A stretch of 63,491 bases of DNA, filler included, from Reclinomonas americana ATCC 50394 (lineage: Eukaryota): the NCBI GenBank assembly GCA_048213135.1. It is 15 parts of 15 records of this genome, joined end to end, with 100 filler letters (N's around TTAATTAATTAA, not from the genome) between each part and the next. Parts side by side here need not be neighbours in the genome. Positions count along the whole stretch, not along the records: positions 32,558 to 48,420 come from AFZH01020459.1; positions 48,521 to 57,173 come from AFZH01020460.1; positions 57,274 to 62,161 come from AFZH01020462.1; positions 62,262 to 63,491 come from AFZH01020465.1; 11 more parts are not named here. One strand, given 5' to 3'. The notes under the pieces are model-generated. The model saw only the letters and a list, made by a program, of their open reading frames with translations, made no database searches and was not told the origin of the DNA. Below, piece by piece: positions 7,481 through 63,491 of this stretch. Both the position numbers and the translations under genes were made by a program. Within the stretch, counting starts at the first letter, position 1; each line of letters begins with the position of its first letter.

Positions 7481-10387
<2,907 letters not shown>

Positions 10388-41950: not shown

Positions 41951-42388
41951 GGTTTGATTGCATGACAATGTGACGGGACGTCTTGAAGTCGTCAGAAAGC
42001 CTGCAAGTGGTAACTGCACACCGCCTAAGGTGGCATAGTGTACCGGCATTCACTCGACGAGGAATACTTCGTTGTGTGCCACTTGGAAGAACCGATCCTG
42101 TGTACGTAAGTCTCTCTGAAATGCAGGTAACGTTGCTCCATCAACAAACGGGACGCTTCTTTCTTTTGTAGTTCATCTTTAGCCGATCTCTTTCGTGCAG
42201 TACCTCCTCACTATCCAAAAGGTTGACGTCGCTTCCATTCACTGCATCAGAGAAACAATTGATTTCATAAAACGTAAATCGCGTCGACGTCGAATGCTCC
42301 ACTGTCGGCGCTCTGATGCAAACCACGAATGCTGCAGAGAGGCGCAATGCGTTCTGCGACTTTATGGCTCATCCACAAAGGGGGCGCA

Positions 42389-45300
42389 TCAAAATCGAAT
42401 GAGTTCGCGAAGATCCGACTCGATCATCAACTCCTCACCGTCTGCCACTCGCTCTTTTAGATCCTCCATCGACACAAAGTGTCTCCTCGATCTGCTGTCG
42501 ACAATCACGCTCGCCAGGTTAGGCGACAGCCGCTCCGTCAGCTGCGGCTCCGACATTGTGTTGACGTTGATATCTGTCGCCGACGACTGTGGGCACTCAC
42601 TCGCCATATGCATGCGGCAAGGATCCTTGAGTACATGCACGCACCGACAAAGTTGCGCTCTAGAAGAGGACCAATGATAAAGCCGAAAAACAGACTCATG
42701 TTTCGTGAGTCCACTACGAATGCGTTGCTTGGCAGCGATGCCTCCAGGTGAGGGTGAGGTCGCACGACAAACAGACCGAACCAAAAGTTCTGCGCAGGCA
42801 CAAGTTACTCACTGCTCCCACACAAACGCAACACGATGCGCATGCGCAACTGTACACGACTGAGCAACGCGTAACACCGTCTGCTTCCGCTTCCGTGACA
42901 TGTCTGCGAAGCGCAGTGCCGAATCTTTCCGCTTGCGAATAAACCGCCGAAGCTTGGTCGCCGATTCCATCTGCTCGTCAACGTACAGCAGTGGCAACGA
43001 TGAACGAGTTCCATCGATCAGCAGACAGGACTGCACAGAACGAGAACCATCAGTTGCGTGTGGCGAGCAAGTGGGTTTCAGCAGAGATTACGCACCAGAA
43101 ATGCGTTTGCATACTCCTCCAGCATTGTATGGACGCTCAACAACTTCCACCACACTCGCTTGAACTGAAACGCCATGTATCCCTGTTGCAACGGATGAGA
43201 AAAGTCTTACGCACAAGGACAGAAGCTCGAAACTCAACTGCCTGTGTGATGATCAGAGCGTCCACGGCGCACGCCCTATCTTGTATCCGAGCGATTGTAC
43301 TGTGTGGAATGTCCAGGTCCACATCCTGCGCAACAGCAAAGTGTCTCAGCTACATCCACAAAGGCAACATACTTGGAGGGCGATCGGGTTACGCACTCCG
43401 AGGTTTCGCGACAGCACGTTCACAGCAGTGTTGGCGTTGATCTGCAGCGACTCGGTGAAGCGAGATGATTCCGACGGAAAGATGGCACCCGACAGCACAT
43501 CCGTGAGCCGCGCAGTACTGCTTTCAAGGTACGACAGTTTGACTGCCAGGCCGCGGGAACATGCCGACTCAAAGTCGTTCTCGCTCCACGCCGTCGTCGG
43601 CAGCTTTAGCAGGTACTTGGCGTCTCCACTTGCACTTAGCAATGCCAACGGGTACAGTGGGAGCTGCACTAGCCCGTGCGACTGTGATGAGCGGTAGCAC
43701 GTTAGGCAGCACAATTATTCGTCACCGACAGTGCACGACCGAACCATGTGCGCTTCGTGGTAGGCGACATAGACTCCATCTCCTAACTCAATGTCGCCAA
43801 GCTGCATCTCGACTGGTCGCGTGGACATCTCGAGCAGTCGCACCTTGTCGAGATTGACGAATACGAACCCCCTGCCACGCAGCTCCACCGCGACTGCTGC
43901 CGCCAAGCGTCCTCCGGCGCCCACGAACTCTGGCACACATAACACGAGGTGGGTGACAAGGCGTTGGACCACTTGGAGTGAGTGCGCTCACCATGCTGTG
44001 GATCCTGACAGAGGGCAATGCCCGATATCAAGGACTCGACGCACCGCTGAAGCCCACCAACACTGGTCACCACTCGACGAAGCGCAGCACATGTTCGCCA
44101 CTTGTCGGCCCATGCCGGATGCGCGTCTCGTATGACGGCATCCACGAATTCGTCAACATGCTCGCTCCGCAGCAGGGGCAGTGGCACGACGCAGTACGGA
44201 TAGATCATTTGATGGAACGCGGTGCTGAGGGTGGCGAGTGACAGCGCAGAGCATGCCACGATCACCATGTCGTTGCTGCTGGCAGGTGGCCAGCACAGCA
44301 AGCCACTAAGGGTTGTCATCATGCCTATGAGATCTCCTGCACAAAGGAAACTGTCGGAGACAAGAAGTGACTAGTCTGTCGCATCTTGGCGAACCTCGTT
44401 GCTCTACCACTTTCAAACACTCGTCCACAAGAACCAATGCGACCAGGTCGTCGTCCGCGGACATGCCTACGGGGAGGCGCGGAGTCAGATCGCGTGGAAA
44501 CAATCAAAGAGAAGGTGCTTTGCTCAGTCACCTGACTGGCGACGCGCGTCGCGAATCACTGCCCCGATGGCGTCTTTGACCGACACGTCGCCCTCATCGA
44601 CCAGGGACAAACACTGGTACTCAGAGACCCACCTTCCAAAGCACGCCGCAGCGCCGAACCATGCGTGGAGAATGCGAAAGCCAATCCACGGGCTCTTGGA
44701 GGCGATCTCTCCCCGAGTCAATTCGTCAGCATTGTTGAAGGTGATGGGTATCTGCAGGTGCTGGCGTCAGAGCAGAAACATCAGACACCACACACACACA
44801 CAAACACACGCACATATACACACACATACACACACATAATGCACACGAAGCTCTCGTAACGTACCGTCAAGCAACAGGTACTTAATGCCTTGCGCAGCCT
44901 CTGCAGCGGCTCGGCGATCGTTGCCGGCCACTCGGCACGCAGATACTCATGGATTCCGAGCTGGAGAAGGTCACCGAGCGAGTCCAGCAGGCGCGACTTG
45001 CCAGAACCGGGTCCTCCGCCAACGACAAGAAACGGATGCTGCATGCGGTCTTGTGCCTCTCCCTTCCCAATGTGCATGGCGAGATCCCACAGCACATCGG
45101 ATGGAATGCTTCGATGAACGAGTGGCATTACGTCACTGGTGAACTGCGGGAGACGGTGAGGTGACGGGGATGCATGAGGTTGCGGGGAGAGAATAGTGTT
45201 ACCAGCTTGGGAGATTCGTTGAGAAGGCGAGATGAGGCTTTCCTTATCAGCAGCCTGCCTGTCTGTTTTCCCACGCGGAAGATGGTGGCCTTTATCTCGT

Positions 45301-46107
45301 CGACTGCGTGACAACAACAGTGAGCGCAGAGAAGGTACTGGATCCCACAGTGGTCAAGCAAACACGCCTAGCGTTCGCTGTCGCTTCCACAGTCGCTCAT
45401 CGTCGTCCTCAGAGTCACGGAAGGAAGCGCGTTTGGCTGCTCCACTGTGAACGAGCGAGAGAGGGAAGTGAGATGTCGGATGGAGATCACAGCAGATTCG
45501 TTCATGCACACCGTCGCGCTTGAGCTTGATGGCGGGAGTTTGAGCCGCGGCCGGAGGCATCCTGTCAAGTCAGAATGTCAGGCATTTGAAATAGGCAGGC
45601 GACAAGCAAACACGCACATATAAAGGGAGGGGCGCAGTAGAGATTGCAAACAACAAATGGAGAGAGAGAGAGACGTCGCTTGCATTCACACTCATCGAGA
45701 AAGGGGCGAGAAGAAATGAAAATCAACATAGATCTGCAGAGTGTAGTGAATGCGCAAGTTGTGCTGCTGTGGGTGCAATAAGCTTAAGTGCAGCAAGTGC
45801 ATGGTGGTAGGAGTGCGCCTAAGTTGACGCCGACGTGCAACGGCAGTTTGAGGCAGTCATTCCCTCTCGTCTTCTTCCTCTCTCTCTCTCTCTCTTTCAT
45901 TTGCTCTCCCCTTTCTCTGTCACTCACCGATAGCCACGACAGCCGCTTCTTCATCGAGCGCGATACCTTACTCTCCACACTCTCCTCCTTTACGGGCAGG
46001 TTTGCCTGCTCGAGCAACCAGTCCAGTCCACGCACGGTGAATCGGCTGGCGAGATCGTCCTCAGTCCACGACGCGAGGTTCCACATAGAGGCTAAATTGT
46101 CGCCCAT
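42389..46107 (-). CDS. Crinkler/RHS-type effector-like protein: SAP-like N-terminus, P-loop NTPase, PD-(D/E)XK REase, helix-hairpin-helix
   Basis: Walker A FLVVGGGPGSGKSRLLD; IPITFNN..RILHAWF; Walker B VALVLVDE; VGGLQRCVE; WSENDFE; REase AVDALII..|GYMAFQFK; LPSNAFVV..NMSLFFG; HhH INVNT.SEPQL..LASVIVDSR..FVSMEDLKERV. Intron phases are consistent where checked. The start codon is tentative. Confidence 0.78.
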
Positions 46108-46613: not shown

Positions 46614-47065
46614 TCACTCAACGAGGAACACTTCGTAGTCTGCCACCTGGATGGTCAGCGATCCCATCAGAGTCGTACAGTCAAGTGCTCCACCGTCGAT
46701 ACTCTGGTAATGGTAAGGGTTGCTGCCGCTGTTGCTGTTGCCGTTGCAGCTGCCAGCCAAGTAAAGGTCATTCCCGCCAAAGTCTGATCCAAGGTTAGAG
46801 CGGTGATAAACGGCACTCTGCTTGCTACCGTCCTTTAGCGCAAAGCGTCGAGCTCTTGCACCGCTCCACGATGCCGAGAACAAGAAGCTGGTGCAGGATG
46901 GGTCGGCAGCATAGGCACCTGACGGATGAGATTGCCAGGAAACAGGCGTGTATCCACCACACACTCGTCCCGTCGAGGACTTGACCACGGTCAGTGTTGC
47001 TCTGCGCGCAGACACACACTCGTCAGAAACCGAGCAACAGCAAACTCGCTCTCTCTCTCTCTCTC

Positions 47066-47113
<48 letters not shown>

Positions 47114-48870
47114 ACTTACTCACCCACGATTGTCACATCGCTGGTGGAATGTGGCTGCCGCAAACCCATCTCGACTGCCCTTGAACAGCAACGTCAACTT
47201 GGGCACACTCCCACCACCGCCACGCGCATGCTCCACCCATTGCAGCACCACTCGCCCATCCGCCGCACTTTAGAGGTCGCTGTCAATCTTCCTCTCCGCT
47301 CGCTCCCGCTCCTCTCGTTCCCCGGCCTCGCGCTCTCGTTCCTCCCGCTCTCTGGCCTGCCTCTCCCGCTCCTCCTGCTCCCTGGCCAGTCTCTCCCGCT
47401 CAGCCGCCTCTCGTTCCTGAATCGCTCTTTCTCGCATCTCCAGTGGCTCGAGACGAGCGAGCAACTGCAGATGAAAGCAAGAGACAGAATGAGGAGAAAA
47501 CGCACCCGAAATCCACCGACATTTACACAACAGACCTGAACAACACCTCTCTCAAGAGCTTCTCGCATGCGCTGCTCTTCGGCAAGTTGCTGACGAGCAA
47601 CTTGAATATCAGCTTGCCTCGCCTGTTGCTCGGCAGCGAGTTGCTGGCTGTATTGCACAAGCCGCTCGTCTGTCAAGCGCAGTCGCTCCTCAACAGCCTG
47701 CCTCGTCTGTTGCTCCATTCCAATGCACTCATTTGCAGCTTGCAGCTCACGAGTCAATCGCTCCTCAACAAGTTGTCTCGCTTGTTGCTCTTGAGCCAGC
47801 ATCCCCACACAATTGACCAGTCGCTCATCTGTCATTTGTCTCGCCTCTCTCTCCTGAGCCACCATCTGAGACACCTCCCGCACCCGACCATGCAGCTGTG
47901 GATACACAACTTACATCAGCATGAATCACCAGCACCATCTACTGCCCATCACTCAAAACTCACCTCTCGCAGTGGTCGCTCCACTCGCAACACATCGCAC
48001 ACTCGCTCATGCTCCTCCCTCTCACCAATTACACCACGCCACTCACACTCCAGATCACCACCACGACACACTGTGTGCTGCAGTCGGCATTCCGTTTCTG
48101 TCACAAGAGAACAAATCAGTGTCATGTCACACATCTCTTTCATCAAAGCACACTCACCAAGATGCCGCTGCATATCAGCCAGTGAACAATGCTGCTGGCA
48201 TCCACGCGGACACACTCGCATGCACCCACTCCAGCTGTGCTCCACCATCTCACTCAGCGCCATCCTCGCTCCACACCCGAGCGGGCACTCGCGCAAGCAG
48301 CCACTCCACTCGTGCTCCACGGTGCGATAGAGTGTCATCTGTTGTCCACATCTCTCGCAGGCATGCGGACACTGCGATGGACCGTGTGTGCGGTAGTAGT
48401 CGCCCACCGTCTGTATATATNNNNNNNNNNNNNNNNNNNNNNNNNNNNNNNNNNNNNNNNNNNNTTAATTAATTAANNNNNNNNNNNNNNNNNNNNNNNN
48501 NNNNNNNNNNNNNNNNNNNNCCTTCCCTTTACCTACACACTCTCTCTCTCTCTCTCTCTCTCTCTGTCTTCACTCACCAAACACACTGGACACACATACT
48601 CGTCCGCCATTGCCCGCGACTCTTGCACGACATGCTCCATCCACAAACGCGGTGGCTTTGCCTTCTTCTCCTCCTCCTTCTCCACTTCTGATGGAGGACG
48701 ACGATGCACAGCGCGCACGACACAGAACTCATATTGTTGTTCCTCGTCAGAGAGTCGCATCATATCACTTGCTGCTCGAGAACAATTTGACTGTCTCCAT
48801 CTGCGCGAGGAGGAGGAAGAGGAGCAGAGGCAGAGCCACTGCCTTCACCGCTACCGTCTTTGAATCCCAT
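46614..48870 (-). pseudogene. RING / TRAF-ZnF / coiled-coil / TLDc gene, copy 1 (disrupted)
   Basis: Same exons as copies 2-6, but with a 5-nt insertion near 48761-48765 and an in-frame TAA at 47270-47272 just before the TLDc domain. The middle RING exons fall in the gap. Confidence 0.75.
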
Positions 48871-49130
48871 TCTCTGTCACCAATGACGAAGGACTGATGA
48901 GTGAGGGCACCGTAATGCAGGACGTACTTTCTCCGTCGTGAAGCCGCAGTGCAGCAACAGACTGCGTTGTTGGTGATGGGGTCTGTGCGACTGCTCAATT
49001 GCCACCCCTGCTCTTGACAGAGAGATGCACAACGAGCGACAAGACACATTTGCTTCTGTTCGCCAGCTTGGTGCTTGCGCATGCACGACGGATGAATCGC
49101 GAATGACCAAGAAGCACAGTGTTCTGTTGT

Positions 49131-51885
49131 TCACTCAACGAGGAACACTTCGTAGTCTGCCACTTGGAAGTTCTTCGATCCCATCAGTGTCGCGTCGTCA
49201 TATACTCCACCGTCGGTGCTCTGGTAATTGCCAGGGACGCTGTTGCTGTGGGTGTTGATGTTGCAATTGTCTGCCAAGTAAAGGTCAGCTCCACCAGCGA
49301 AGACTGGTCCAATGTCAGAGCAGTGATAAAAGGCCTGCTGTTTCTTGTCATCCTTCAGTGCAAAGCGTCGTGAATTTGCACCACTCCACGATGCCGAAAA
49401 CAAGAAGCTGGAGCCGGATGGATCAGCAGCGTGCACGCCTAATACATGAGACTGCCACGGAATCGGCGTGTACCCGCCACACACTCGTCCGGTCGACGAC
49501 TTGACCACAGTCAGCGTCGGTCTGAACACAGCCACTCACCCATCAGCTATCTAAACAACAAACTCGCTCTCCATTCCTCCATCACTCACCCACGATTGTC
49601 ACAGCGCTGATGGAATGTGGCCGCCGCAAACCCATCTCGACTACCCTTGAACAGCAACGTCAACTTGGGCACACTGCCACCGCCACCTCGTGCCTGTTGC
49701 ACCCAGTGCAACACCACTCGCCCATCCTCTGCACTCAGCAGATCGCTATCAACTTTCACCTGTGCGAGCACGCGCTCCTCTCGTTCTCTGGCCTCGCGCT
49801 CCCGCTCCTCGCGTTCCCTGGCCTGCCTCTCCCGCTCCTCCAGCTCTCTGGCCAGCCGCTCCCGCTCAGCTGCCTCTCGCTCCTGGATTGCTCGCTCACG
49901 CACCTCCAGTGGCTCGAGACGGGCGAGCAGCTGCAGATGAAAGCAAGAGAGAGAATTAGGAGAAAACGCACTCGAACGGTCCACTGACAATCACACGACA
50001 GACCTCAGCAACACCTCTTTCGAGAGATTCACGCATGCGCTGCTCTGCAGCAAGTTGCTCGCGAGTAGCTTGACTCTCAGCTTTCCTCGCCTGTTGCTCC
50101 GTGACAATGCGCTCATTTGCAGCTTGCAGCTCGTGTGCCAATCGCTCTTCGACAACCCGCCTCGCATCCTTCTCCTGTGCCAGCTGCTCCCTGCCTTCGG
50201 CCACCATTTGAGAGAGCTCTCGCACCCGACCATGCAGCTGTACACATAACCAATAGCCACATTAGCTGCTTAAATGACCAGCAGCATCCCCTGTCCACCA
50301 TTCCAAACTCACCTCTCGCAGCGGTCGCTCCACTCGCAGCACGTCGCATACTCGCTCATGCTCCTCCCTCTCACCAATGATCCCACGCCATCCACATCCC
50401 AGTTCACCACCACGACACACTGTCTGCTGCAGTCGGCACTCCGTTTCTGCCACGAGAGAACAAAGGGAGACACCACATCAGTGTCTTTCACACTACTCTG
50501 CTCATCAAGCACACTCACCAAGATGCCTCTGCATCTCCGCCAGTGCACACTGCTGCTGACATCCACGCGGACACGCCCGCATGCACCCACTCCAGCTGTG
50601 CTCCACCATTTCACTCAGTGCCATCTTCGCTCCACACCCAAGTGGACACTCGCGCAAGCATCCACTCCACGCATGCTCAGCGGTGCGATCGAGTGTCATC
50701 TGTTGTCCACATCTCTCGCAGGCATACGGGCACTGTGTGAGGCCATGTGTGCGATAATAGTCGCCCACCGTCTGTTCTCATCCACCATGAGCGGAGAGGG
50801 AGAGAGGGAGAGAGAGGACAATGATAAGAAAGACGAAAGACAGAGAATGCGAGCGAGAGAAGAGAACGAGAGAATTCACCGAGAATGAGAGGGAGGGCAA
50901 AAGAGGTAGAGAAAATGACACGGTGCAAAGAAATGAGAGAATGACACTGAGAATGAGAGGGAGGAGAGAGAGAATGACACCACAAGATAAGAGAGAAAGA
51001 GGGCAAGGGAGAAAGAGAGAACGAGAGTGCGCAAGAGAGAGAGAGAAGCACAACAAAACACACAAACCATGGGTGCGTGGCACAGCGGGCATGTGATCTG
51101 CATTCCCACTCATAGTCAGCAAAGCAAGACAGCTATCATGCACAACGAGCACCATCTCCCCAACCTTCAAGTTGCCATACATGACCACATTCCGTCGCTG
51201 AGCCTCCTTCAGTGTGGCCAGCGATGTGACTCCATCGCCACACAGATCCGACCCGGCCTCCGTCACATGCTCACTGCCAAGTCACTCATTACCATCAGTT
51301 GTGCATGACATGGAAGACCTTGCCTCTCTCTCACTCACCGACAGATGAAGTGCAGCTCGTGGGCACACAACACGAAATCCGGAGCACACAGATCCTGTTG
51401 GCAGCACACAGAAGTCATGTCACAATAAGCACGATGAAGCAGAGCGAAGGGTGGTTGCAGGCGCGACTCATGAAAAAAGACTGTTCTCTCTCTTCATGTG
51501 ATGGGGATGTGCACGAAACACTGTTGCAACCTGACGAGAGCGCGCATGCTTCTCTCTCCCTTTCCCCTTTGCTCTCTCTCTCTCTCTCTCTCTCCCACTC
51601 TTCACTCACCAAACACACTGGACACACATACTCGTCCGCCATTATCCGCGACTCTTGCACGACATGCTCCATCCACAAACGCGGTGGCTTTGCCTTCTCC
51701 TCCTCCTTCTCCACTTCTGATGGAGGACGACGATGCACAGCGCGCACCACACAGAACTCATACTGCTCGTCGTCAGAGAGTCGCATCACTTGCTGCTCGA
51801 GAACAATCTGACTGTCACCATCTGCACGAGGAGGAGGAGGAGCAGAGGCTGAGCCACTGCCTTCACCACCGTCTTTGAATCCCAT
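49131..51885 (-). CDS. RING / TRAF-ZnF / coiled-coil / TLDc protein, copy 2 (complete)
   Basis: MGFKDG..YVCPVCL|DLCAPDFVLCAHELHFICR|EH..NLK|ITCPLCHAPM|C-C-H-C fingers|coiled coil|KLTLLFKGSRDGFAAATFHQRCDNRG|PTLTVVKS..GGYTPIPW..SFLFS..GPVF..DL..DYEVF. Confidence 0.88.
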
Positions 51886-52148
51886 TCTCAGTGAGGGAGA
51901 GTTGAGAGAGGACACATGCAGGACGTCTTTTCTCCGACGTGAAGCAGTGCATCAGCAACAACAGTCTGAGTTGCTGGTGATGGGGTCTGTGCGACTGCTC
52001 AGTGGCCGTCCCTGCTTTTGATAGAGTGATGTGCAACGAGCGACAAAACACACTTGCATGTGGTCGCCTGTGTCGCGATCGCCTGTGTCGTGCTTGAGCT
52101 GTAAGACGGATGTTGTGCACATGACCAGGCATCACAACATTATGTTAT

Positions 52149-54590
52149 TCACTCAACGAGAAACACTTCGAACTCTGCCACCTGGAAGTTTCTCGCTCCC
52201 ACCAATGACATACTGTCGTATACGTCGAAGTCAGTGATGTAATACGAGAGAAGATTGCTGTAGCTGTTGTTGTTGTTGTTGCAGCTATCAGACAAGTAAA
52301 GGCTGTGGCCACTGCCAAAGCATGGGCCGTGGTCAGAGTAGAGGCGAATGGCTCGATGTTTCTGATCATGCTTAAGTGCAAAGCGACGCGCGCTTGCATC
52401 ACTCCACGACGCCGAGAAAAGGAAGCTGGTACCCGACACATCCGCGACCCAAGAAGCCGAAGCTGGAGACTGCCACGAGACAGGCGTGTACCCGCCACAC
52501 ACTCGTCCCGTCGACGACTTGACCACAGTCAGAGTCGGTCTACACACACTCACTCACTCGTCAGTCACACAAACAACAAGCAATCTCTCTGCATCAATCA
52601 CTCACCCACGATTGTCACACAGCCGATGGAATGTCGCGGCCTTGAATCCATCCCGACTGCCCTTGAACAGCAACGTCAGCTTGGGTACACTCCCGCTGCC
52701 TCCTCGCGCCTGCTGCACCCATCGCAGCACCACTCGCGCATCTGCCGCACTCAGCAGATCGCTGTCGGTTTTCAACTTCGCCAGCTCCCGCTCCTCTCGT
52801 TCTCTGGCCTCACGCTCCAGTTCCTCTTCTTCCCTCGCCACTCTCTCCCGATCAGCTACCTCGCGTTCCTGCATCGCTCGTTCACGCATCTCCAGCGACT
52901 CGAGACGGTCAATTAGCTGGAAATTAAGAAAATGAATAAGCCAAGAGAAATCAACCACTCGGTACGCCGAAGCGTAATAAATATCACCTTAGAAACTCTT
53001 GCCTCGAGAGCTTCACGCATCTTCTGCTCTGCGGCCAATCGCTCGGTGTACAACGCAAGGCGTTCATCGGCTGCGACTACAGCAGCCTGTCGCGTCTTTC
53101 GCTCATCAGCCAACTGCTGACTACATTTGATGAGGCGCTCGTCAGCAGCTTGCAGTTCAGCCTGTCTCGCCTCCCTCTCCTGAGCCACCATCTGTGACAG
53201 CTCTCGCACCCGACCATGCAGCTGTACACATACATGCAAACCACATCAGCTGTCTGCATGACCAGCAGCATCCGCAGCCTACGCACCTCTCGCAGCGGTC
53301 GCTCCACTCGCAGCACGTCGCATACTCGCTCATGCTCCTCCCTCTCACCAACAATACCACGCCATCCACACCCCAGTTCACCACCGCGGCACACTGTGTG
53401 CTGCAGACGGCACTCCGTTTCTGCCACGAGAGACATCAAGTCAGTGTCATGATCCACCTCTCTTTCCTCTCCAAAGCACACTCACCAAGATGCCGCTGCA
53501 TATCAGCCAATGAACTCTGCTGCTGACATCCACGCGGACACTCTCGCATGCACCCACTCCAGCTGTGCTCCACCATCTCACTCAGCGCCATCCGTGTTCT
53601 ACACCCGAGTGGACACTCGCGCAAGCATCCACTCCACTCATGCTCCGCCGTGCGATCCAGCGTCATCTGCTGTCCACACCTCTCGCATGCGTACGGGCAC
53701 TGTGATGGACCATGTGTGCGGTAATAGTCGCCCACCGTCTGCTCTAATCCACAGTGAGCGGAGAGGGAGAGAGAGGGAGAGGACGATGGGAAGGAAGATA
53801 GAGACTGAGAATGAGAGGGAGTGAAGAGAGCGAGAGAAGACACCAAGAATGAGAGGGAGGGCAAGAGAGGTAGAGAGAGAGAGAGAGAGAGAATGACAGG
53901 CTGCAAGAAAAAGAGAGAATGACACCAAGAATGAGAGGGAGTGCAAGAGAAGCAGAGAGAGAGAGAGAGAGAATGACACAGTGCAAAGAAAATGAGAGAA
54001 TAACACTGAGAATGAGAGGGAGCGAGAGAGACACCACAAGAAGAGAGGCAAATAAGACGGAGAAACACAACAAGACAAACCATGGGTGCGTGGCACAGCG
54101 GGCATGTGATCTGCATTCTCACACTCGCTGTCAGCAAACAAACAAGACAGCCATCATGCACAACGAACATCATCTCCCCAACCTTCAAGTTGCCATAGAT
54201 GACCACGTTCCGTCGCTGTGCCTCCTTCAGTGTGGCCAGCGATGTGACTCCATCGCCACACAGATCCGATCCAGCGGCAGTCACATGCTCACTGTCAAGT
54301 CACGCGTTACAAACAGTTGTGCATGACACGGAAGGCCTTGCCTCTCTTCGCACACTCACCGACAGATGAAGTGCAGCTCGTGCGCACACAACACGAAATC
54401 CGGAGCACACAGATCCTGTTGCAGCACAGAAGTCATGTCACAATAAACACGACGAAGCAGAGCGAAGGGCGGTGGCAGGCGCGACTCATGAACAGAGAGT
54501 GCTCTCTCTCTCTCCATGTGATGAGGATGTGCACACGAATCAATGCTGCGGCCTGCAAAGAGTGTGTGCTTGTCTCTCCTTTCCCTACTT

Positions 54591-54626
<36 letters not shown>

Positions 54627-54914
54627 ACTCACCAAACACACTGGGCACACATACTCGTCCGCCATCATCCGCGACTCTTGCATGACATGCTCCATCCACA
54701 AACGAGGTGGCTTTGCATCTTCCTCCTTCTCCACTTCTGATGGAGGACGACGATGCACAGCGCGCACCACACAGAACACATATTGTTCCTCGTCAGAGAG
54801 TCGCATCACTTGCTGCTCGAGAACAATTTGACTGTCTCCATCTGCGCGAGCAGGAGGAGGGGGAGGAGCGGAGGCAGAGCCACTGCCTTCACCTCCGCCG
54901 TCTTTGAATCCCAT
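52149..54914 (-). CDS. RING / TRAF-ZnF / coiled-coil / TLDc protein, copy 3 (complete)
   Basis: All exons present. TLDc motifs GSRDGFKAATFHRLCDNRG, GGYTPVSW, GPCFGSG and EFEVF. Confidence 0.88.
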
Positions 54915-55190
54915 TCTCTGTCGCCGATCCTGTCGCCAATGTCGAAGGGAAGAGAGGACACGTGATGCAGGACGTCTTTTTCTCCGACGTGAAGCCGCAG
55001 TGCAGCAACAACAGTCTGCATTATGGGTTACTGTGCGACTGCTCAGTGGTCATCTCTGCTCTTGATAGTGAGATGTACACCGAGCGACAAACACATTTGC
55101 GTCTGTTCGCCAGCATGGTGCTTGAGCATGAACGATGCACGCGATCTGGATGACACCGGAACGACCAGGCAACAGAGTGTTGCCTGCTAT

Positions 55191-57038
55191 TCACTCAACA
55201 AGAAACACTTCGTAGTCGGCCACTAGGAATTTGTACGATCCCATCAACGTCGTGCTGTCACATGCTCCACCGTCGGTGCTCTGGTAATTGACAGGGTTGC
55301 TGCAGCTGTTGCTCTGGCTGTTGCAGTTGTCTGCCACGAGGAGGTCGTTGCCACCGTAGAAGATTGGTCCAAATCCAGAGTGGTGATAAACGGCCTGCTG
55401 TTTCTTGTCAGCCTTCAGTGCAAAGCGCCGCGCATGTGCACCACTCCACGACGCCGAGAACAAGAAGCTGGTGCCGGATGGATCGGCGACAACGGTGACC
55501 GTGGACTGCCACGGGACAGGGGTGTACCCGCCACACACTCGTCCCGTCGACGACTTGGCCACAGTCAGCGTCGGTCTGCACACAATCACTCACCCATCAG
55601 CCACCGAGCAATACAAGCTGTCTCCCCTTCCCTCAATCACTCACCCACGATTATCACAGCGTTGATGGAATGTGGCTGCCCTGAATCCATCTCGACTGCC
55701 CTTGAACAGCAACGTGAACTTGGGCACACTCCCACCACCTCGCACCTGCTGCACCCATTGCAGCACCACCCGTCCATCCGCAGCACTCAGCAGATCGCTG
55801 TCGACCTTCCTCTCCGCTCGCTCGCGCTCCTCTCGTTCCCTGGCCTGCCGCTCTCGCTCCTCTCGCTCCCTGGCTTGCCTCTCTCGCTCCTCCTGTTCTC
55901 TGGCCAGCCGCTCCCGCTCAGCTGCCTCTCGTTCATGGATCACTCGTTCACGCATCTCCAGTGGCTCGAGACGGGCGAGAAGCTGCAGATGAACGCAAGC
56001 GAGAGAATGAGGAGAAGACGCACTCGAACGGTCCACTGCCATTCACACAACAGACCAGTGCAAGCTGCTGGCGGCACTCGACCAGCATTCCAACGCAGTC
56101 GCCAAGACGATCGTCAGCGACTTGTCGCGCCTCTCGCTCACAGGCCACCATCTGAGAGAGCTCTCGCACTCGGCCATGAAGCTGTGCACAACAATACAAG
56201 TCGCATTAGATGCACTAAATAACCGGCAGTATCCACTGTGCATTCCAAATTCACCTCACGCAGTGGTCGTTCCACTCGCAACACGTCGCACACTCGCTCA
56301 TGCTCCTCCCTCTCACCAACAACACCACGCCATGCACACCCCAGTTCACCACCACGACACACCGTGCGCTGCAGCCGGCACTCCGTTTCTGTCGCAAGAG
56401 AACACAAGAGACACACCACATGAGTGTCATGACACACCAGATCTCCATCAAGCACACTCACCAAGATGCCGCTGCATCTCCGCCAGTGAACACTGCTGCT
56501 GACACCCACGCGGACACGCCCGCATGCACCCACTCCAACTGTGCTCCACCATCTCACTCAGTGCCACCCTCGCTCCACACCCAAAAGGACACTCGCGCAA
56601 GCATCCACTCCACTCATGCTCCGCCGTGCGATCCAGGGTCATCTGCTGTCCACATTTCTCGCATGCGTGCGGGCACTGCGTGAGGCCATGCGTGCGGTAG
56701 TAGTCGCCCACCGTCTGTTCTCACCCAAAGTGAGTGGACGGATGAAACGAGGGAGGGCACAGGGGGACGATGAAAAGGATGACCAGAGACAGAGAACGAG
56801 AGGAAGCGAAGAGAACGCGAGAAGACCGAAAATTAGAGGGAGGGTAAGAGAGGCCGAAAGAAGAAGTGAACGATGAGAAGATCAGAGTCAGAGAAGGCGA
56901 GGGCGAGAAGAGAACGAGAAGACACCAAGAATGAGAGGGAGGGCAAGAGAGGTAGAGGGAGAGAGGGAGAGAATAAGAGGATGCACAGAAATTGAGAGAC
57001 TGACACTCGGGAGAAGACAGAGAGAGAAAGACACCACA

Positions 57039-57080
<42 letters not shown>

Positions 57081-57513
57081 AGAGAGATAGACAACAACGA
57101 CACAACAACAGTGGTGCGTGACACGAGGTGGACTATGTGTTCGTGCTATTCTACACTCTATTCGTACACGAACNNNNNNNNNNNNNNNNNNNNNNNNNNN
57201 NNNNNNNNNNNNNNNNNTTAATTAATTAANNNNNNNNNNNNNNNNNNNNNNNNNNNNNNNNNNNNNNNNNNNNTTGCATGACTTGCTCCATCCACAAACG
57301 CGGAGGCTTTGCCTTGTCCTCCTCTTTCTCCACTTCTGACGGAGGACGACGATGCACAGCGCGCACCACACAAAACACATATTGTTCCTCGTCAGAGAGT
57401 CGCATCACTTGCTGCTCGAGAACAATCTGACTGTCTCCATCTGCGCGAGCAGGAGGAGGGGGAGGAGCGGAGGCAGAGCCACTGCCTTCACCTCCGCCGT
57501 CTTTGAATCCCAT
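55191..57513 (-). CDS. RING / TRAF-ZnF / coiled-coil / TLDc protein, copy 4 (RING exons in gap; short coiled coil)
   Basis: Exon 1 at 57274-57513; ZnF, coiled-coil and TLDc exons at 55191-56714. Linkage across the gap is assumed. Confidence 0.78.
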
Positions 57514-57770
57514 TCTCTGTCGCCAATGTCGAAGGGAAGAGAGGACACGTGATGCAGGACGTCTTTTTCTCCGACGTGAAGCCGCAGCGAAGCAGCAGCA
57601 ACAATCCGCGTTGTGTGGGGTCTGTGCGACTGCTCAGTGGTCATTCCTGCTCTTGATAGTGAGATGCACAACGAGCAACAAGACACACTTGCATCTGTTC
57701 GCCTTTGTGGTGCCTGTGCATGCAAGATGGATGACACCTGAACGACCAGGCAGAACAGTGTTCTTGTTAT

Positions 57771-60023
57771 TCACTCGACGAGGAATACTTCGTAGTCTGC
57801 CACTTGGAAGTTCCTCGATCCCATCAATGTCGTGTCGTCAAATACTCCACCGTCGGTGCTCTGGTAATTGACAGGTTTGCTGTAGCTATTGCTGTTGCTG
57901 TTGCAGTTGTTAGTCAAGTAAAGGTCGTAACCACCATAGAAGGCTGGTCCGTATCCAGGATAGTGGCCAACGGCCTGCTGTTTCTTGTCATCCTTCAGTG
58001 CAAAGCGTCGTGAATTTGCACCACTCCACGATGCCGAAAACAAGAAGCTGGAGCCGGATGGATCAGCAGCGTGCACGCCTAATGCATGAGACTGCCACGG
58101 AATCGGCGTGTACCCGCCACACACTCGTCCGGTCGACGACTTGACCACAGTCAGCGTCGGTCTGAACACAGCCACTCACCCATCAGCTATCTAAACAACA
58201 AACTCGCTCTCCATTCCTCCATCACTCACCCACGATTGTCACAGCGCTGATGGAATGTGGCCGCCGCAAACCCATCTCGACTACCCTTGAACAGCAACGT
58301 CAGCTTGGGCACACTGCCACCGCCACCTCGTGCCTGTTGCACCCATCGCAGCACCACTCGCACATCCTCTGCACTCAGCAGATCGCTATCAACTTTCACC
58401 TGTGCGAGCACGCGCTCCTCTCGTTCTCTGGCCTCGCGCTCCCGCTCCTCCCGCTCCTCCAGCTCTCTGGCCAGCCGCTCCCGCTCAGCTGCCTCTCGCT
58501 CCTGGATTGCTCGCTCACGCACCTCCAGTGGCTCGAGACGGGCGAGCAGCTGCAGATGCAGCAAGAGAGAGAATGAGGAGAAAACGCACTCGAACGGTCC
58601 ACTGACAATCACACGACAGACCTGAGCAACACCTCTCTCGAGAGATTCACGCATGCGCTGCTCTGCGGCAAGTTGCTCGCGAGCAGCTTGAATCTCGGCT
58701 TGCCTCGCTTGTTGCTCCATGACGATGCACTCATTTGCAGCTTGCAGCTCGCGAGTCAATCGCTCCTCAACAGCTTGTCTCACTTGCTGCTCAGCGGCTA
58801 GCCGCTCATCTGTCACTTGTCTTGCCTCCCGCTCACTGGCCACCATCTGAGACAGCTCTCGCACCCGACCATGCAGCTGTGCACACAAACACAACCCACA
58901 TCAGCTGCCTGCATGGCCAGCAGTACCCACAGCCTACACACCTCTCGCAGTGGTCGCTCCACTCGCAGCACATCGCACACTCGCTCATGCTCCTCCCTCT
59001 CACCAATTACACCACGCCATCCACACCCCAGTTCGCCACAACGACACACTGTGTGCTGCAGTCGGCACTCCGTTTCTGTCACAAGAGAACAAATCGGTGT
59101 CATGATGCACGACCCTCTCCTCCAAGCACACTCACCAAGATGGCGCTGCATATCCGCCAGTGAACACTGCTGCTGACATCCACGCGGACACGCTCGCATA
59201 CACCCACTCCAGCTGTGCTCCACCATTTCACTCAGCGCCATCCTCGCTCCACACCCGAGCGGGCATTCGCGCAAACATCCGCTCCACTCATGCTCCGCCG
59301 TGCGATCGAGTGTCATCTGTTGTCCGCATCTCTCGCATGCGTACGGGCACTGTGATGGACCGTGTGTGCGGTAATAGTCGCCCACCGTCTGTTTCATCAT
59401 CCGCAGTGAGCGGAGAGAAAGAGAGGGAGAGAGAGGATGATGGGAAGGAAGATAAGAGACAGAGAATGAGAGGGGGTGAAGAGGACGAGAGAAGACACCA
59501 AGAATGAGAGGGAGGGCAAGAGAGGTAGAGGGAGATGGAGAGAGAGAATGACACCACAAGATAAGAGAGAAAGAGGGCAAGGGAGAAAGAGAGAAAGAGA
59601 GTGCACAAGAGAGAGTGAACGAGAGTGCGCAAGAGAGAGAGAGAGGAACATCACACGAAGAGAGAGAGAGAGAGAGAGAGAGAAGCACAACAAAACACGC
59701 AAACCATGGGGGCGTGGCACAGCGGGCATGTGATCTGCATTCTCATTCCCCGTCAGCAAACAAGGCAGCCAGCAATGCACAACGAGCATCATCTCCCAAC
59801 TTTCAAGTTGCCATACATGACCACATTACGTCGCTGAGCCTCCTTCAGTGTGGCCAGCGATGTGACTCCATCGCCACACAGATCCGACCCGGCCTCTGTC
59901 ACGTGCTCACTGCCAAGTCACTCGTCACAAACAGTTGTGCATGACACGGAAGACTTTGCCTCACTCACCGACAGATGAAGTGCAGCTCGTGGGCACACAA
60001 CACGAAATCCGGAGCACACAGAT
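57771..60023 (-). CDS. TRAF-ZnF / coiled-coil / TLDc gene, copy 5, lacking exon 1 (N-truncated or pseudogene)
   Basis: Exons from DLCAPDF onward are intact. Intron-1 sequence joins upstream-region sequence directly near 60110-60135, with no gap and no MGFKDG..CPVCL exon. Confidence 0.72.
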
Positions 60024-60383
60024 CCTGCAAACAAGGGAAGTCATGCCACAATAAGCACGATGAGAAGAGAGAAGGATTGTGGCAGGCGCGACACATGAAC
60101 AAAGACTGTGCTCTCTCTCTCTGCAAATGACGATGAGAGAGGACACGGGATGCAGGACGTCGATTCTCCGACGTGAATCCGCAGCGAAGCAGGAACAGCA
60201 GACTGCGTTGTTGGTGATGTATTCTGTGCGCCTGCTCAGTGGCCATCCCTGCTCTTGATAGTGAGATACACAACGAGCGACAGAACACACTTGCATGTTT
60301 TCGCCAGCGTGGTGATCGAGCATGCAAGATGCACGCGAGACGGATGACACATGAATCACCAGGCAACAGAGTGTTCTTGTTAT

Positions 60384-62156
60384 TCACTCAACGAGGAACA
60401 CTTCGTAGTCAGCCACTTGAAAGTTCCGCGATCCCATCAGTGTCGTGGTGTCATATGCTCCACCATCAGTGCTCTGGTAATTGCCAGGTTGGCTGTAGCT
60501 GTTGCTGCTGCTGTTGCAGCTGTCGAACAAGATAAGGTCATGACTACCGTGGAACCAGGGTCCATATCCAGAACCGTGAGCAACGGCCTGTTGTTTCCTG
60601 TCAGCCTTCAGTGCAAATCGTCGCGCATTTGCACCACTCCACGACGCCGAGAACAAGAAAGTGGTGCCCGACACATCCGCGACCCAAGAAGCCGAAGCTG
60701 GAGACTGCCACGATACAGGCGTGTACCCGCCACACGCTCGTCCCGTCGACGACTTGACCACTGTCAGCGTCGCTCTGCGCACAGTCATTCATCGATCAGA
60801 CACCGCGCACAACGAACGCTCTCACTCTCCCCTCAATCACTCACCCTCGATTGTCACATCGCTGGTGAAATGCGGCTGCCTTAAATCCATCTCGACTGCC
60901 CTTGAACAGTAATGTCAACTTGGGCACAGCAGCACCGCCACCTCGCGCTTGTTGCACCCACTGCAGCACCACTCGCGCATCTGCCGCACTCAGCAGATCG
61001 CTGTCGGTTTTCACCCTCGCCCTCTCCCGCTCCTCACGTTCCCTGGCCTCACGCTCCCGCTCCTCCCGCTCTCTGGCTTGCCGCGCTCGCTCCTCCTGCT
61101 CTCTGGCCAGTCTCTCCCGCTCAGCCGCCTCGCGCTCCTGAATCGCTCGTTCACGCTCTTCCAGTGGCTCGAGACGGGCGAGCAGCTGCAGATGAGAGCA
61201 AAGGAGAGTGAGGGGAGGAGCAATGCGCTCGAATGGTCCACTGACATTCACACAACAGACCTGAGCAACACCTCTCTCGAGAGTTTCGCGCATGCGCTGC
61301 TCAGCGGCGAGTAGCTCACCAGCAGCTTGGCTCTCAGCTTGTCTCGCCTGTTGCTCGGCAGCGAGTTGCTGGCTGCATTGCACAAGCCGCTCATCTGTCA
61401 ACCGCAGTCGCTCCTCAACAGCCTGCATCGCCAATTGCTCCATTACAATGCGCTCGTTTGCAGCTTGCAGCTCACAAGTCAATCGCTCCTCAACAGCTTG
61501 TCTCGCTTGTTGCTCATCAGCCAGTTGCCGGCTGCATTGAACAAGGCGCTCATCTGCCAACTGCATGCGCTCCTCAACAACTTGTCTTGCCTCCCGCTCA
61601 GTGGCTACCATCTGCGACAGCTCTCGCATCCGACCATGCAGCTGTGCACACAAACACAACCCATATCAACTGCATGAATGACCAGCAGCATCCGCAGCCA
61701 ACTCACCTCTCGCAGCGGTCGCTCCACTCGCAACACATCGCACACTCGCTCATGCTCCTCTCGTTCACCAACAATACCACGCCATTCACACCCCAGTTCA
61801 CCACCGCGACACACTGTGTGCTGCAGTCGGCATTCCGTTTCTGCAACAAGAGACACAACATCAGTGTCATGAAAATACTTCTCTCCGCCAAGCACACTCA
61901 CCAAGATGCCTCTGCATATCCGCCAGTGAACACTGCTGCTGGCATTCACGCGGACACGCCCGCGTGCACCCACTCCAGCTGTGCTCCACCATCTCATTCA
62001 GCGCCATCCTCGCTCCACACGCGAGTGGACACTCTCGCAAGCACCCACTCCACTCATGCTCCACGGTGCGATCCAGTGCCATCTGCTGTCCACACCTCTT
62101 GCAGGCATACGGGCACTGCGTCAAGCCATGTGTCCGGTAGTAGTCACCCACCGTCT
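60384..62156 (-). CDS. TRAF-ZnF / coiled-coil / TLDc protein, copy 6 (5' exons in gap)
   Basis: ZnF exon ~61899-62156, the longest coiled-coil exon, and intact TLDc exons. Confidence 0.82.
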
Positions 62157-62624
62157 GTTCTNNNNNNNNNNNNNNNNNNNNNNNNNNNNNNNNNNNNNNN
62201 NNNNNTTAATTAATTAANNNNNNNNNNNNNNNNNNNNNNNNNNNNNNNNNNNNNNNNNNNNAGAGAGAGAGAGAGAGAGAGAGAAGAGAGAGAAGAGAGA
62301 GAGAAAGAGACGCACAAGGAACGAGGTCAGTGGCAAGAATGGAAGAGAGGCAACGAAACTCAAGCAGAGAGACAGAGACAGACAATCAAGGAAGACAATG
62401 TGAGAGAGAGAGAGAGAGAAAGAAAGAAAGAAAGAAAGAAAGACACAGGTTGTGAGCGACAGCAAACCCCAGCGGAGACAAACAAGGATGCCAACACAGT
62501 GCGTGGCAGGAGCACGCTTTGGAAACAGCGCAGCAAGCCCGTGACAAATAGAAAGAAGCACACCAAAGATGACAACACTGACAACGCCAACAGAAGAAAC
62601 ATCCCCCCTTTTCCTATTCGCGCA

Positions 62625-63372
62625 CCATCGCCGTCTTATTCTTCTGCGACAAATCATTGTTGGCGGCCACCACTCGATCAAACTTCTCCTGCGCGTCCCT
62701 GCGCTCCCGTGCACTGTCGCGCCGCAGTTCACTGCGCCCCCCGCCAACCAATGGTCACCATCACGATCACGAAAGCATGCACGGCCACCCCTGCACGCAA
62801 CTCCAACTGCGCCTTTTGCTTCTCCACCTCCCGCATCGTCAGCTCCAGCTGCTCCGACTTGCGTTTCTGCATGCCACAACTTCATCAACTATCCTCCCCC
62901 TCCGCACCCTCCCTTTGCCTTCCCCGGCCACTCACCAAGTTCCCCGACAGAGTCTCATAGTCGCACTCGAGCTTGCGGATCTTCTCCGCCGACTGCTCAC
63001 GATACCCGAGATCCACCTGCCGCTGCTGCAATAGTGCCGCCACGCAGTCGAGCACCTGACGCGCCTCGTAGTCCTCGAGCGGCTGTCGTGACGACGAGGA
63101 GGCCAGCACCGACGGCAGGGTGGGGAAGTTGTGCTCGCGCAGGGAGCGGTTGACGTAGGCCAGGCGCTCTTCCACCGAGTCGACGGCCAGGCGGTCGCCG
63201 CCGCCGCCGCCGCCCGTCAGTTCGGAGCGAGGGTAGACGAGGGCGGAGGAGCGGGCGCTACGTGTGTGGGTGTGAGGAGAGAGAGGATGGAAAGGAAGAA
63301 GGGAGGATGGGTGAATGGCACCTGCGAAAGGGACTGTCCTCGGGTTCGTCGTCGTAGGGACTGCCGTCGACC
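62625..63372 (-). CDS. ADIP/SSX2IP (Msd1)-family coiled-coil protein, internal fragment
   Basis: VEERLAYVNRSLREHNFP..VLDCVAALLQQRQVDLGYREQSAEKIRKLECD resembles the ADIP pattern YLNQ.L...GFP..NCIY.LLQQRQRD.EFRE. Coiled-coil exons follow. Confidence 0.7.
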
Positions 63373-63453
63373 TGTGAGGGAGGAGGAGGAGGAGGGCAGT
63401 GTGAGAAGCAAGAAGAGAATGATACAGCGAGTCGTTTGGGTAACGGGCCACAC

Positions 63454-63491
<38 letters not shown>

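Follow-up and report, generated by a model that had tools for sequence, protein, structure and literature searches.

The 63,491-nucleotide stretch of Reclinomonas americana ATCC 50394 DNA that we analysed (assembly GCA_048213135.1, hereafter the window) carries a tandem array of six gene units whose intact members encode, from the N- to the C-terminus, a RING-H2-like domain, four C2HC zinc fingers, a helical/coiled-coil linker, and a TLDc domain. On balance, and with modest confidence, we interpret the array as a lineage-specific gene family, expanded by tandem duplication, whose products are modular RING-type ubiquitin ligases carrying TLDc as their target-binding end. The anatomy by itself is held more firmly than this ubiquitin ligase (E3) interpretation as a whole, for which we infer E3 activity, oligomerization, and the role of TLDc as the target-binding end.

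A tandem array of six gene copies

The array occupies positions 46614-62161 of the minus strand and consists of six head-to-tail units whose stop codons are spaced 2517-3042 bp apart. The peptide motif VFLVE followed by a stop codon is found six times on this strand (stops at 46614, 49131, 52149, 55191, 57771, and 60384), further peptide motifs recur in register across the units, and a blastn comparison of the copy-3 unit with the window gives 70-87% nucleotide identity between units. The six head-to-tail units of ~2.5-3 kb described in an earlier note on this DNA are thus borne out by the stop codons and by blastn. The same note spoke of six paralogues, which is right for the units and overstates the functional set, only copies 2 and 3 being demonstrably intact.

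The window has 14 occurrences of a fixed linker made of 44 N, TTAATTAATTAA, and 44 N (e.g., 2428-2527 and 48421-48520), most of them adjoining (CT)n or other simple repeats. A linker with stops in six frames is presumably a contig-joining device, and we take these linkers to be assembly gaps and the window to be a chain of contigs that does not give the real distances across them. Three of them cut the array (48421-48520, 57174-57273, and 62162-62261). Nevertheless, the contig 48521-57173 is gap-free and contains copies 2 and 3 in full, flanked by the first exon of copy 1 on one side and the 3' two thirds of copy 4 on the other. Over both internal gaps the exons follow in the correct order (E1, gap, E5), which shows the tandem arrangement to be real and the scaffold order consistent. 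An origin of the array as a haplotype or collapsed-assembly artefact, which the earlier note had named as grounds for refutation, is ruled out by the 8-27% divergence of coding DNA between copies and by this gap-free contig, where two full copies and parts of two others lie together. The DNA is eukaryotic, with a guanine-cytosine (GC) content of ~0.51-0.57 over the array, and its host has ~54% GC, short GT-AG introns, and many (CT)n repeats.

Comparison of the copies yielded a gene model of nine exons (E1 to E9) with GT-AG boundaries at every intron, whose frame is open in both copy 2 and copy 3. E5 to E9, encoding the fingers, the helical linker, and TLDc, are found in all six copies with GT-AG at every acceptor and donor, and are open in five of them. 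Exons are more conserved than introns (identity of 0.887 for E5 and 0.910 for E6, compared with 0.73-0.79 for introns 5-8). We rejected an intron-less reading from exon 3 through exon 4, for which the frame differs between copies; a short E3/E4 intron with the conserved acceptor ...ATGCAG, common to copies 2, 3, and 5, restores a single frame. An extension of exon 5 to include "HLGEC" was also discarded, the donor G/GTGAGT being invariant and splicing there producing in finger 3 the H-x4-C spacing also seen in fingers 1 and 2. The copies, all on the minus strand, are as follows.

46614..48870, minus strand: copy 1, probable pseudogene (exon mapping); E1 48870-48578, E5 48410-48158, E6 48097-47964, E7 47895-47536, E8 47464-47124, E9 47001-46614
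49131..51885, minus strand: copy 2, intact, 9 exons, 607 amino acids, all introns GT-AG, open frame; E1 51885-51610, E2 51394-51339, E3 51273-51165, E4 51097-51068, E5 50771-50519, E6 50446-50313, E7 50237-50004, E8 49930-49590, E9 49521-49131
52149..54914, minus strand: copy 3, intact, 9 exons, 599 amino acids, coding sequence of 1800 nt, all introns GT-AG; E1 54914-54633, E2 54415-54360, E3 54291-54183, E4 54110-54081, E5 53738-53486, E6 53420-53287, E7 53221-52988, E8 52916-52606, E9 52539-52149
55191..57513, minus strand: copy 4, E5 to E9 open (blastn and exon mapping); E1 57513-57274, E5 56714-56462, E6 56388-56255, E7 56181-56056, E8 55982-55645, E9 55575-55191
57771..60383, minus strand: copy 5, 5'-truncated, probable pseudogene; E2 (60024-59969) through E9 (58161-57771) present and open
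60384..62161, minus strand: copy 6, E5 to E9 open (exon mapping); E5 62154-61902, E6 61840-61707, E7 61641-61261, E8 61185-60845, E9 60774-60384

The full reading from RING through fingers and linker to TLDc is found in copies 2 (607 amino acids) and 3 (599 amino acids), for which the domain order proposed in the earlier note (RING-like, TRAF-like fingers, helical linker, TLDc) proved correct. In copy 1, E2 to E4 fall inside the gap 48421-48520, a 5-nt insertion near 48763-48767 shifts the frame of E1 (a downstream ATG could rescue most of this exon), and E8 has an in-frame TAA at 47272-47270. In copy 4, the end of E1 and the whole of E2 to E4 fall at the gap 57174-57273 and are missing from the assembly, and E7 is shortened to 42 amino acids. 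In copy 5, a deletion of ~420 bp with its junction near 60136 removed E1, leaving neither an ATG nor the first CxxC pair; blastn and alignment agree that positions 241-663 of the copy-3 unit are absent from it. E1 to E4 of copy 6 lie beyond the contig end at 62161 (gap 62162-62261).

Some introns of copies 5 and 6 (5, 6, or 7) are open in frame, such that long open reading frames (ORFs) run through them (58226-58900 and 58813-59742 in copy 5 and 60841-61665 in copy 6, all on the minus strand). These intron-spanning ORFs could mislead ORF-based annotation. Intron 5 of copy 5 is 60 nt long, and its retention would add 20 residues. The spacer between a stop codon and the next ATG measures only ~220-280 bp (55190-54915 and its equivalents before copies 1, 4, and 5). 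Over the spacer and part of exon 1 (~500 bp), copy 3 is 84-87% identical to copies 1 and 4 (blastn), and over the spacer alone copies 3 and 5 are 81% identical. The copies follow one another very closely, and regulatory sequence may be shared between them.

Domains of the encoded proteins

In copy 3, the four parts of the protein map to the window as follows.

54081..54653, minus strand: RING-H2-like motif, read from the spliced model
53287..53738, minus strand: zinc-finger array (E5 and E6), four C-x2/3/6-C-x11-H-x3/4-C units
52745..53221, minus strand: helical/coiled-coil linker (E7 and the first part of E8, ~128 amino acids), from the heptad score
52149..52744, minus strand: TLDc domain (the last 53 codons of E8 and E9, with the 66-nt intron 8 between them), from Pfam TLD

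The C-terminal TLDc assignment of the earlier note was confirmed both by profile and by fold. The Pfam TLD family (PF07534) matches copy 3 E9 with 47.8 bits (cutoff 24.5; expectation value, E, of 1.9e-12) over profile positions 53-169, and the end of E8 over positions 4-52 with 15.2 bits (E of 0.021). A structural model of copy 2 E9, built from a 50-row alignment and covering only the C-terminal two thirds of TLDc, reached a mean predicted local distance difference test score (pLDDT) of 91.4. The top 15 Foldseek matches of this model were all TLDc structures (E of 1.4e-3 to 2.8e-2, the next match having an E of 0.34), and VIA-align retrieved 10 TLDc entries with Z of 9.7-13.2 and a root-mean-square deviation of 2.0-2.5 Å over 109-112 residues (next Z, 3.2). 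The identity to the matched TLDc structures in the structural alignments is 16-25%, and a search of PDB sequences with the six-copy E9 profile retrieved no TLDc chain even at an E of 10. In terms of sequence, the TLDc clade of the window is remote from the characterized TLDc proteins, too much so for their function (e.g., V-ATPase binding) to be transferred to it.

Upstream of TLDc, the linker is nearly devoid of proline and glycine, has a heptad score above that of shuffled sequences (z of 1.1-3.8), and terminates in ~45 E- and R-rich residues. Its length varies between 102 and 187 amino acids among copies through in-frame insertions and deletions of repeat-like units.

The earlier note had counted about five zinc fingers. 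We count four C2HC units, to which a regular expression adds two overlapping matches inside the RING region. All 12 finger ligand positions in E5 are invariant in the six copies. When the finger region was compared using a protein-atlas language model, its look-alikes were zf-TRAF/Sina clusters (score of 0.93-0.94, 182-192 of 256 features shared) in which 85-94% of the members carry zf-TRAF; we consider these look-alikes a lead towards, and not proof of, the TRAF type. Among other Pfam families, Sina_ZnF gave E-values of 0.26-3 with the finger exons and zf_UBZ fell just under the cutoff. A word-index search for relatives of the finger region among longer proteins found none, and the comparison with PDB sequences returned only a chance C2H2 match (E of 0.52). 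Two metagenome-contig loci that matched the E5 alignment were set aside as spurious, since they are 99% identical to each other and run antisense to a long ORF on a gene-dense, intronless, bacterial-looking contig.

The N-terminal ~85 residues are of low complexity and match no Pfam family at E ≤ 0.1 except for one weak chance match. They are followed in copies 2 and 3 by the pattern C-x2-C-x10-C-x-H-x2-H-x2-C-x39-C-x2-C, with eight ligands supplied by four exons: E1 encodes CPVC, E2 C-x-H-x2-H-x2-C, E3 most of the 39-residue loop, and E4 CPLC. The RING cross-brace consensus is C-x2-C-x9-39-C-x1-3-H-x2-3-C/H-x2-C-x4-48-C-x2-C. In the spliced proteins, a RING regular expression is satisfied by residues 88-153 of copy 2 and residues 90-155 of copy 3; when the N-terminal 160 residues were shuffled 20000 times, it never matched. 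By motif match, copies 2 and 3 thus have a putative RING-H2-like domain with the eight-ligand cross-brace spacing. The RING-like domain of the earlier note accordingly fits these two copies and not copy 5, which lacks the first CxxC pair.

Evolution of the parts

We estimated non-synonymous (dN) and synonymous (dS) divergence and their ratio (omega) for each part as pairwise Nei-Gojobori means over 15 pairs, and obtained a second estimate of omega with IQ-TREE (GY+F3X4).

Fingers: dN 0.045, dS 0.415, omega 0.11 (IQ-TREE 0.136)
Linker: dN 0.144, dS 0.680, omega 0.21 (IQ-TREE 0.259)
TLDc part in E8: dN 0.062, dS 0.524, omega 0.12 (IQ-TREE 0.178)
TLDc part in E9: dN 0.203, dS 0.568, omega 0.36 (IQ-TREE 0.469)

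The E9 TLDc exon, with the highest dN and omega, is the fastest-evolving coding part, and its nucleotide identity (0.777) is hardly above that of introns. Positive selection was not detected in any of 21 fifteen-codon windows (none with omega > 1, maximum 0.81), the highest values (0.65-0.81) being located in loops of the second half of E9. Variability between the paralogues falls on the same TLDc sites as variability across 44 other TLDc proteins (Spearman 0.42, p = 7e-7, n = 129), a pattern that fits relaxed constraint as well as diversification. The claim that TLDc is the variable domain of the family holds as regards its rate, but gains no further support, there being no sign of positive selection and the same sites varying in TLDc domains generally. 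Overall, these are old duplicates in which the scaffold has been kept by strong purifying selection and the outer half of TLDc is subject to relaxed or mildly diversifying selection.

Codon trees of the linker and of TLDc pair copy 2 with copy 5 and copy 3 with copy 6, a pairing not seen in the finger tree. In their 3' half, copies 2 and 5 are much closer to each other (p-distance 0.08-0.10) than other pairs are, which is not the case in the fingers, and their TLDc parts are 92% identical in nucleotides; there are four distinct TLDc types among the six copies. The pattern of copies 2 and 5 indicates block duplication, gene conversion, or both. The paired copies (2/5 and 3/6) are 8.2-8.6 kb apart, which hints at the duplication of a three-gene block, and the TLDc dS of ~0.12 versus ~0.6 in the two pairs suggests that copies 2 and 5 later underwent gene conversion.

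Two fragments upstream of the array complete this picture.

45662..45877, plus strand: inverted, degenerate E8-like fragment, interrupted by two in-frame stops and covering the linker end and TLDc start; tblastn with the copy-3 protein, E of 7e-4, 29/73 identities
42053..42094, minus strand: what may remain of a TLDc C-terminus, reading "RFFQVAHNEVFLVE" and then a stop; tblastn, 11/14 identities, E of 3.1, not significant alone

The first is a possible relic of a further copy. The disabled copies and the two relic fragments show that the family gains and loses members by birth and death.

Relatives of the array proteins

With the six-copy E9 profile, an exhaustive HMMER search retrieved 3632 proteins at E ≤ 1e-3 from 1.84 billion representative proteins, the best 150 of which we examined together with three further E9 word-index matches (153 relatives, in Pfam scans of 34 and 119). 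The word-index search with E9 among longer proteins gave four matches, all of them TLD-only. The array family appears to be absent from this collection, as judged from sequence similarity, because none of the best 150 of the 3632 proteins is near enough to correspond to its own genes. All 153 relatives contain TLD, accompanied, among the families listed, by BTB_2 in 13 (8/34 and 5/119), BACK in three, zf-B_box in two (P0136 being a B-box-TLD protein among these nearest relatives), and Sina_ZnF in one. Since BTB_2, BACK, B-box, and Sina/TRAF modules all occur among them, TLDc has been joined repeatedly to ubiquitin-ligase-type modules. The RING regular expression, a two-finger regular expression, and a hidden Markov model of the fingers of the window matched none of the 153 nearest TLDc relatives. 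The E9 alignment found no loci in viral contigs.

Proteins that combine a RING or TRAF fingers with TLDc are not described in the papers retrieved by our literature search, with subscription journals and the InterPro architecture tables outside its reach, and a term search of the TLDc review PMC5614904 for RING, zinc finger, BTB, and protist gave no match. The author of the earlier note, who could not search, did not know of a description of the architecture. Nor did we find a paper describing it, but a public cluster of proteins with Sina/TRAF fingers, a coiled coil, and TLDc (P0155/P0085, see below) does exist.

A possible family of ubiquitin ligases and its alternatives

As RING-type ubiquitin ligases, the array proteins would recruit a ubiquitin-charged E2 enzyme by their RING, the fingers and the stalk would form a rigid, probably self-associating scaffold, and TLDc would bind the target to be ubiquitinated or tether the ligase to it. 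The family would change by tandem duplication, local gene conversion, and decay, with the scaffold held constant and the outer TLDc surface drifting or diversifying between paralogues. An independent suggestion to the same effect comes from the relatives, where the presence of TLDc behind BTB/BACK, B-box, and Sina/TRAF modules implies that this domain often serves ubiquitin-ligase-type scaffolds. Several observations weigh against the ligase interpretation. The RING comes from a motif match to a spliced model, the motif being split over four exons; its loop of 39 residues between ligands 6 and 7 is unusually long, and its outer cysteine pairs could also belong to C2HC-like units. The TRAF type attributed to the fingers in the earlier note agrees with their Cys/His spacing and language-model look-alikes but not with Pfam, in which zf-TRAF reached E-values of only 1.7 and 7.5 with the finger exons, far below threshold, and a single-sequence AlphaFold model of the copy 5 fingers (including the 20-amino acid read-through of intron 5) had a pLDDT of 36. 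Only two of the six copies are demonstrably intact. Finally, no relative combining RING, TRAF fingers, and TLDc was found by sequence among the 153 nearest TLDc relatives or in the finger search, and comparative support for a conserved fusion is therefore lacking.

The loop and the outer cysteine pairs also bear on a quite improbable alternative, in which the proteins are non-catalytic scaffolds or oligomeric adaptors whose N-terminus holds structural zinc only, in two extra C2HC-like units, like RING-inactive TRAFs. The C2HC regular expression does have matches that span the first RING pair and that run from the last pair into E5, and a 39-residue loop is atypical; against this, the central C-x-H-x2-H-x2-C and the flanking CPxC pairs fit a RING-H2 cross-brace exactly, a fit that none of the 20000 shuffles reproduced. 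A decaying or silent array, with most or all copies being pseudogenes or untranscribed duplicates, would account for the frameshift and stop of copy 1, the missing exon 1 of copy 5, and the two relic fragments. We regard it as very unlikely, given that E5 to E9 are open in five of the six copies at a dS of 0.4-0.7, with omega of 0.11-0.47 and all splice sites kept. Such open frames, low omega values, and preserved splice sites imply long-term purifying selection on several copies.

Two further alternatives concern what TLDc might recognize. In line with the defence locus proposed in the earlier note, the proteins would be cell-autonomous immune restriction factors if TLDc, in the SPRY/MATH slot, were a diversifying pathogen-recognition module that directs the ubiquitination of invaders or triggers signalling. 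This unlikely possibility agrees with the tandem birth and death of the genes (two copies disabled and two relic fragments), with an E9 TLDc exon evolving 4.5 times faster than the fingers at non-synonymous sites, with a stalk that varies from 102 to 187 amino acids, with the existence of B-box-TLDc and BTB-TLDc relatives, and with the presence of NCOA7 among the fold-matching structures. The short isoform of NCOA7 is described in PMC8005160 as an interferon-related influenza restriction factor acting on the vacuolar ATPase (V-ATPase). However, omega is below 1 in 21/21 windows (maximum 0.81), the sites that vary are positions variable in TLDc domains at large (rho 0.42, p = 7e-7), as expected under relaxed constraint, the six copies contain no more than four distinct TLDc types (copies 2 and 5 being 92% identical in the TLDc part), and none of 60 flanking ORFs matches an immune-type Pfam family at E ≤ 0.001. 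The observations are thus compatible with an immune role and do not support it directly. A role directed at the V-ATPase is an equally live, and hence also rather doubtful, alternative. Here the proteins would regulate the V-ATPase or the endolysosome, TLDc docking on the V-ATPase and the RING ubiquitinating pump subunits or neighbouring membrane proteins, and the paralogues would be sub-functionalized housekeeping or stress genes. All structures matching the E9 model are TLDc, among them the V-ATPase-bound 7u8o, 7u4t, 7une, 7uzg, and 7fde, and TLDc proteins of the Oxr1, NCOA7, mEAK7, and TBC1D24 type are described as V-ATPase binders; judging by entry titles and abstracts, each characterized TLDc protein resembled by the model binds this pump. 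Nevertheless, the TLDc of the array is remote from them (no PDB TLDc chain by sequence at an E of 10, identity 16-25%).

The ligase interpretation can be extended, with little confidence on our part, to TLDc being a recurrent recognition module of ubiquitin ligases in protists and invertebrates, and arrays such as this one being a diversifying, cell-autonomous defence repertoire like TRIM-SPRY or TRAF-MATH. TLDc may have come to lie independently behind RING and TRAF-like fingers, Sina/TRAF fingers (P0155), a B-box (P0136), and BTB/BACK (16 of the 153 relatives). TLDc is among the less understood conserved eukaryotic domains. The small number of members studied so far are described as acting on the V-ATPase, one of them, NCOA7-AS, restricting influenza entry. 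In this array TLDc occupies the substrate end of a RING/TRAF-like scaffold, and relatives combine it with BTB, B-box, or Sina-finger modules, which suggests that ligases make wide use of it as a binding module; if confirmed, this would give TLDc a general biochemical role. Should the paralogues also recognize different ligands, the family would add to the TRIM/TRAF-like immune receptors a new class found outside animals. At present, what has been found is a new combination of domains, well defined and known from sequence, in a gene cluster that is small and partly decayed.

Genes flanking the array

The flanking genes recognized by Pfam are of the housekeeping type.

7597-8106, 31642-32343, 40703-41818, and 62888-63490, all on the minus strand: RPL3 (ribosomal protein L3), an MFS_5 transporter, a KTI12/AAA_33-like gene, and an ADIP-like coiled-coil gene (Pfam)

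An ORF with a Walker-A P-loop (GGGPGSGKS), presumably encoding an NTPase, lies just upstream of the array at 44784-45353 on the minus strand, with more ORFs down to ~42800. Its Pfam matches are weak and sub-threshold (AAA_16, NPHP3_N, and Zeta_toxin, E of 0.03-0.24).

Comparison with known architectures

The first three modules of TRAF proteins (e.g., TRAF2 and TRAF6, composed of RING, TRAF-type fingers, coiled coil, and MATH/TRAF-C) have the same order as those of the array proteins, and the array finger spacing C-x2/3-C-x11-H-x4-C falls within the TRAF-type consensus. The array proteins differ in ending with TLDc instead of MATH (Pfam scans of the copy 3 exons listed no MATH family), in having a RING of the H2 type with a 39-residue loop, and in that zf-TRAF is not significant and no sequence relative was found. 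As in TRIM proteins (e.g., TRIM5alpha, composed of RING, B-box, coiled coil, and PRY/SPRY), a RING is combined with a helical scaffold in tandem paralogues whose C-terminal beta-rich domain evolves faster. By contrast, the array exon pieces that were scanned contain neither zf-B_box (finger exons, up to an E of 10) nor SPRY, and there is no sign of positive selection. As the earlier note stated, the position of TLDc is that of MATH in TRAFs and of SPRY in TRIMs.

The nearest TLDc relatives by sequence are BTB_2 (KCTD-type)-TLDc, BACK-TLDc, and multi-TLDc proteins, all of which differ from the array in the lack of RING or fingers. BTB/KCTD proteins are typically Cullin-3 substrate adaptors, so that TLDc is again found at the substrate end of a ligase module. 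OXR1/Oxr1p, NCOA7, TBC1D24/Skywalker, and mEAK7 have their fold in common with the TLDc of the array, and differ in their partner domains (LysM, GRAM, TBC, and EF-hand, according to the Fig. 1 legend of PMC5614904).

The closest architecture that we found is that of the P0085/P0155 cluster (516/559 amino acids, annotated in one source as "hypothetical protein"), for which we found no describing paper. As in the array, a Cys-rich N-terminus is followed by Sina/TRAF fingers (Sina_ZnF E of 1.8e-5 to 4.8e-5, zf-TRAF E of 0.004-0.006), a coiled coil of ~200 amino acids, and a C-terminal TLD (E of about 1e-25), and the TLDc of P0085 is among the best 150 of the 3632 relatives of the window's TLDc. 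The N-terminus of P0155 differs in having CxxC...CxxC only, without the central C-x-H block, and its fingers show no significant similarity to those of the window (hhalign E of 0.38, BLASTP E of 0.52). The two proteins come from an A/T-rich, Asn/Lys-rich proteome, and a search with the N-terminus of P0155 returns only their own cluster. The architectures of P0155 and of the array may be convergent. The modules and their logic (RING, fingers, coiled coil, and a variable C-terminal domain) are thus known from other systems, whereas their combination with TLDc is new and has one public analogue.

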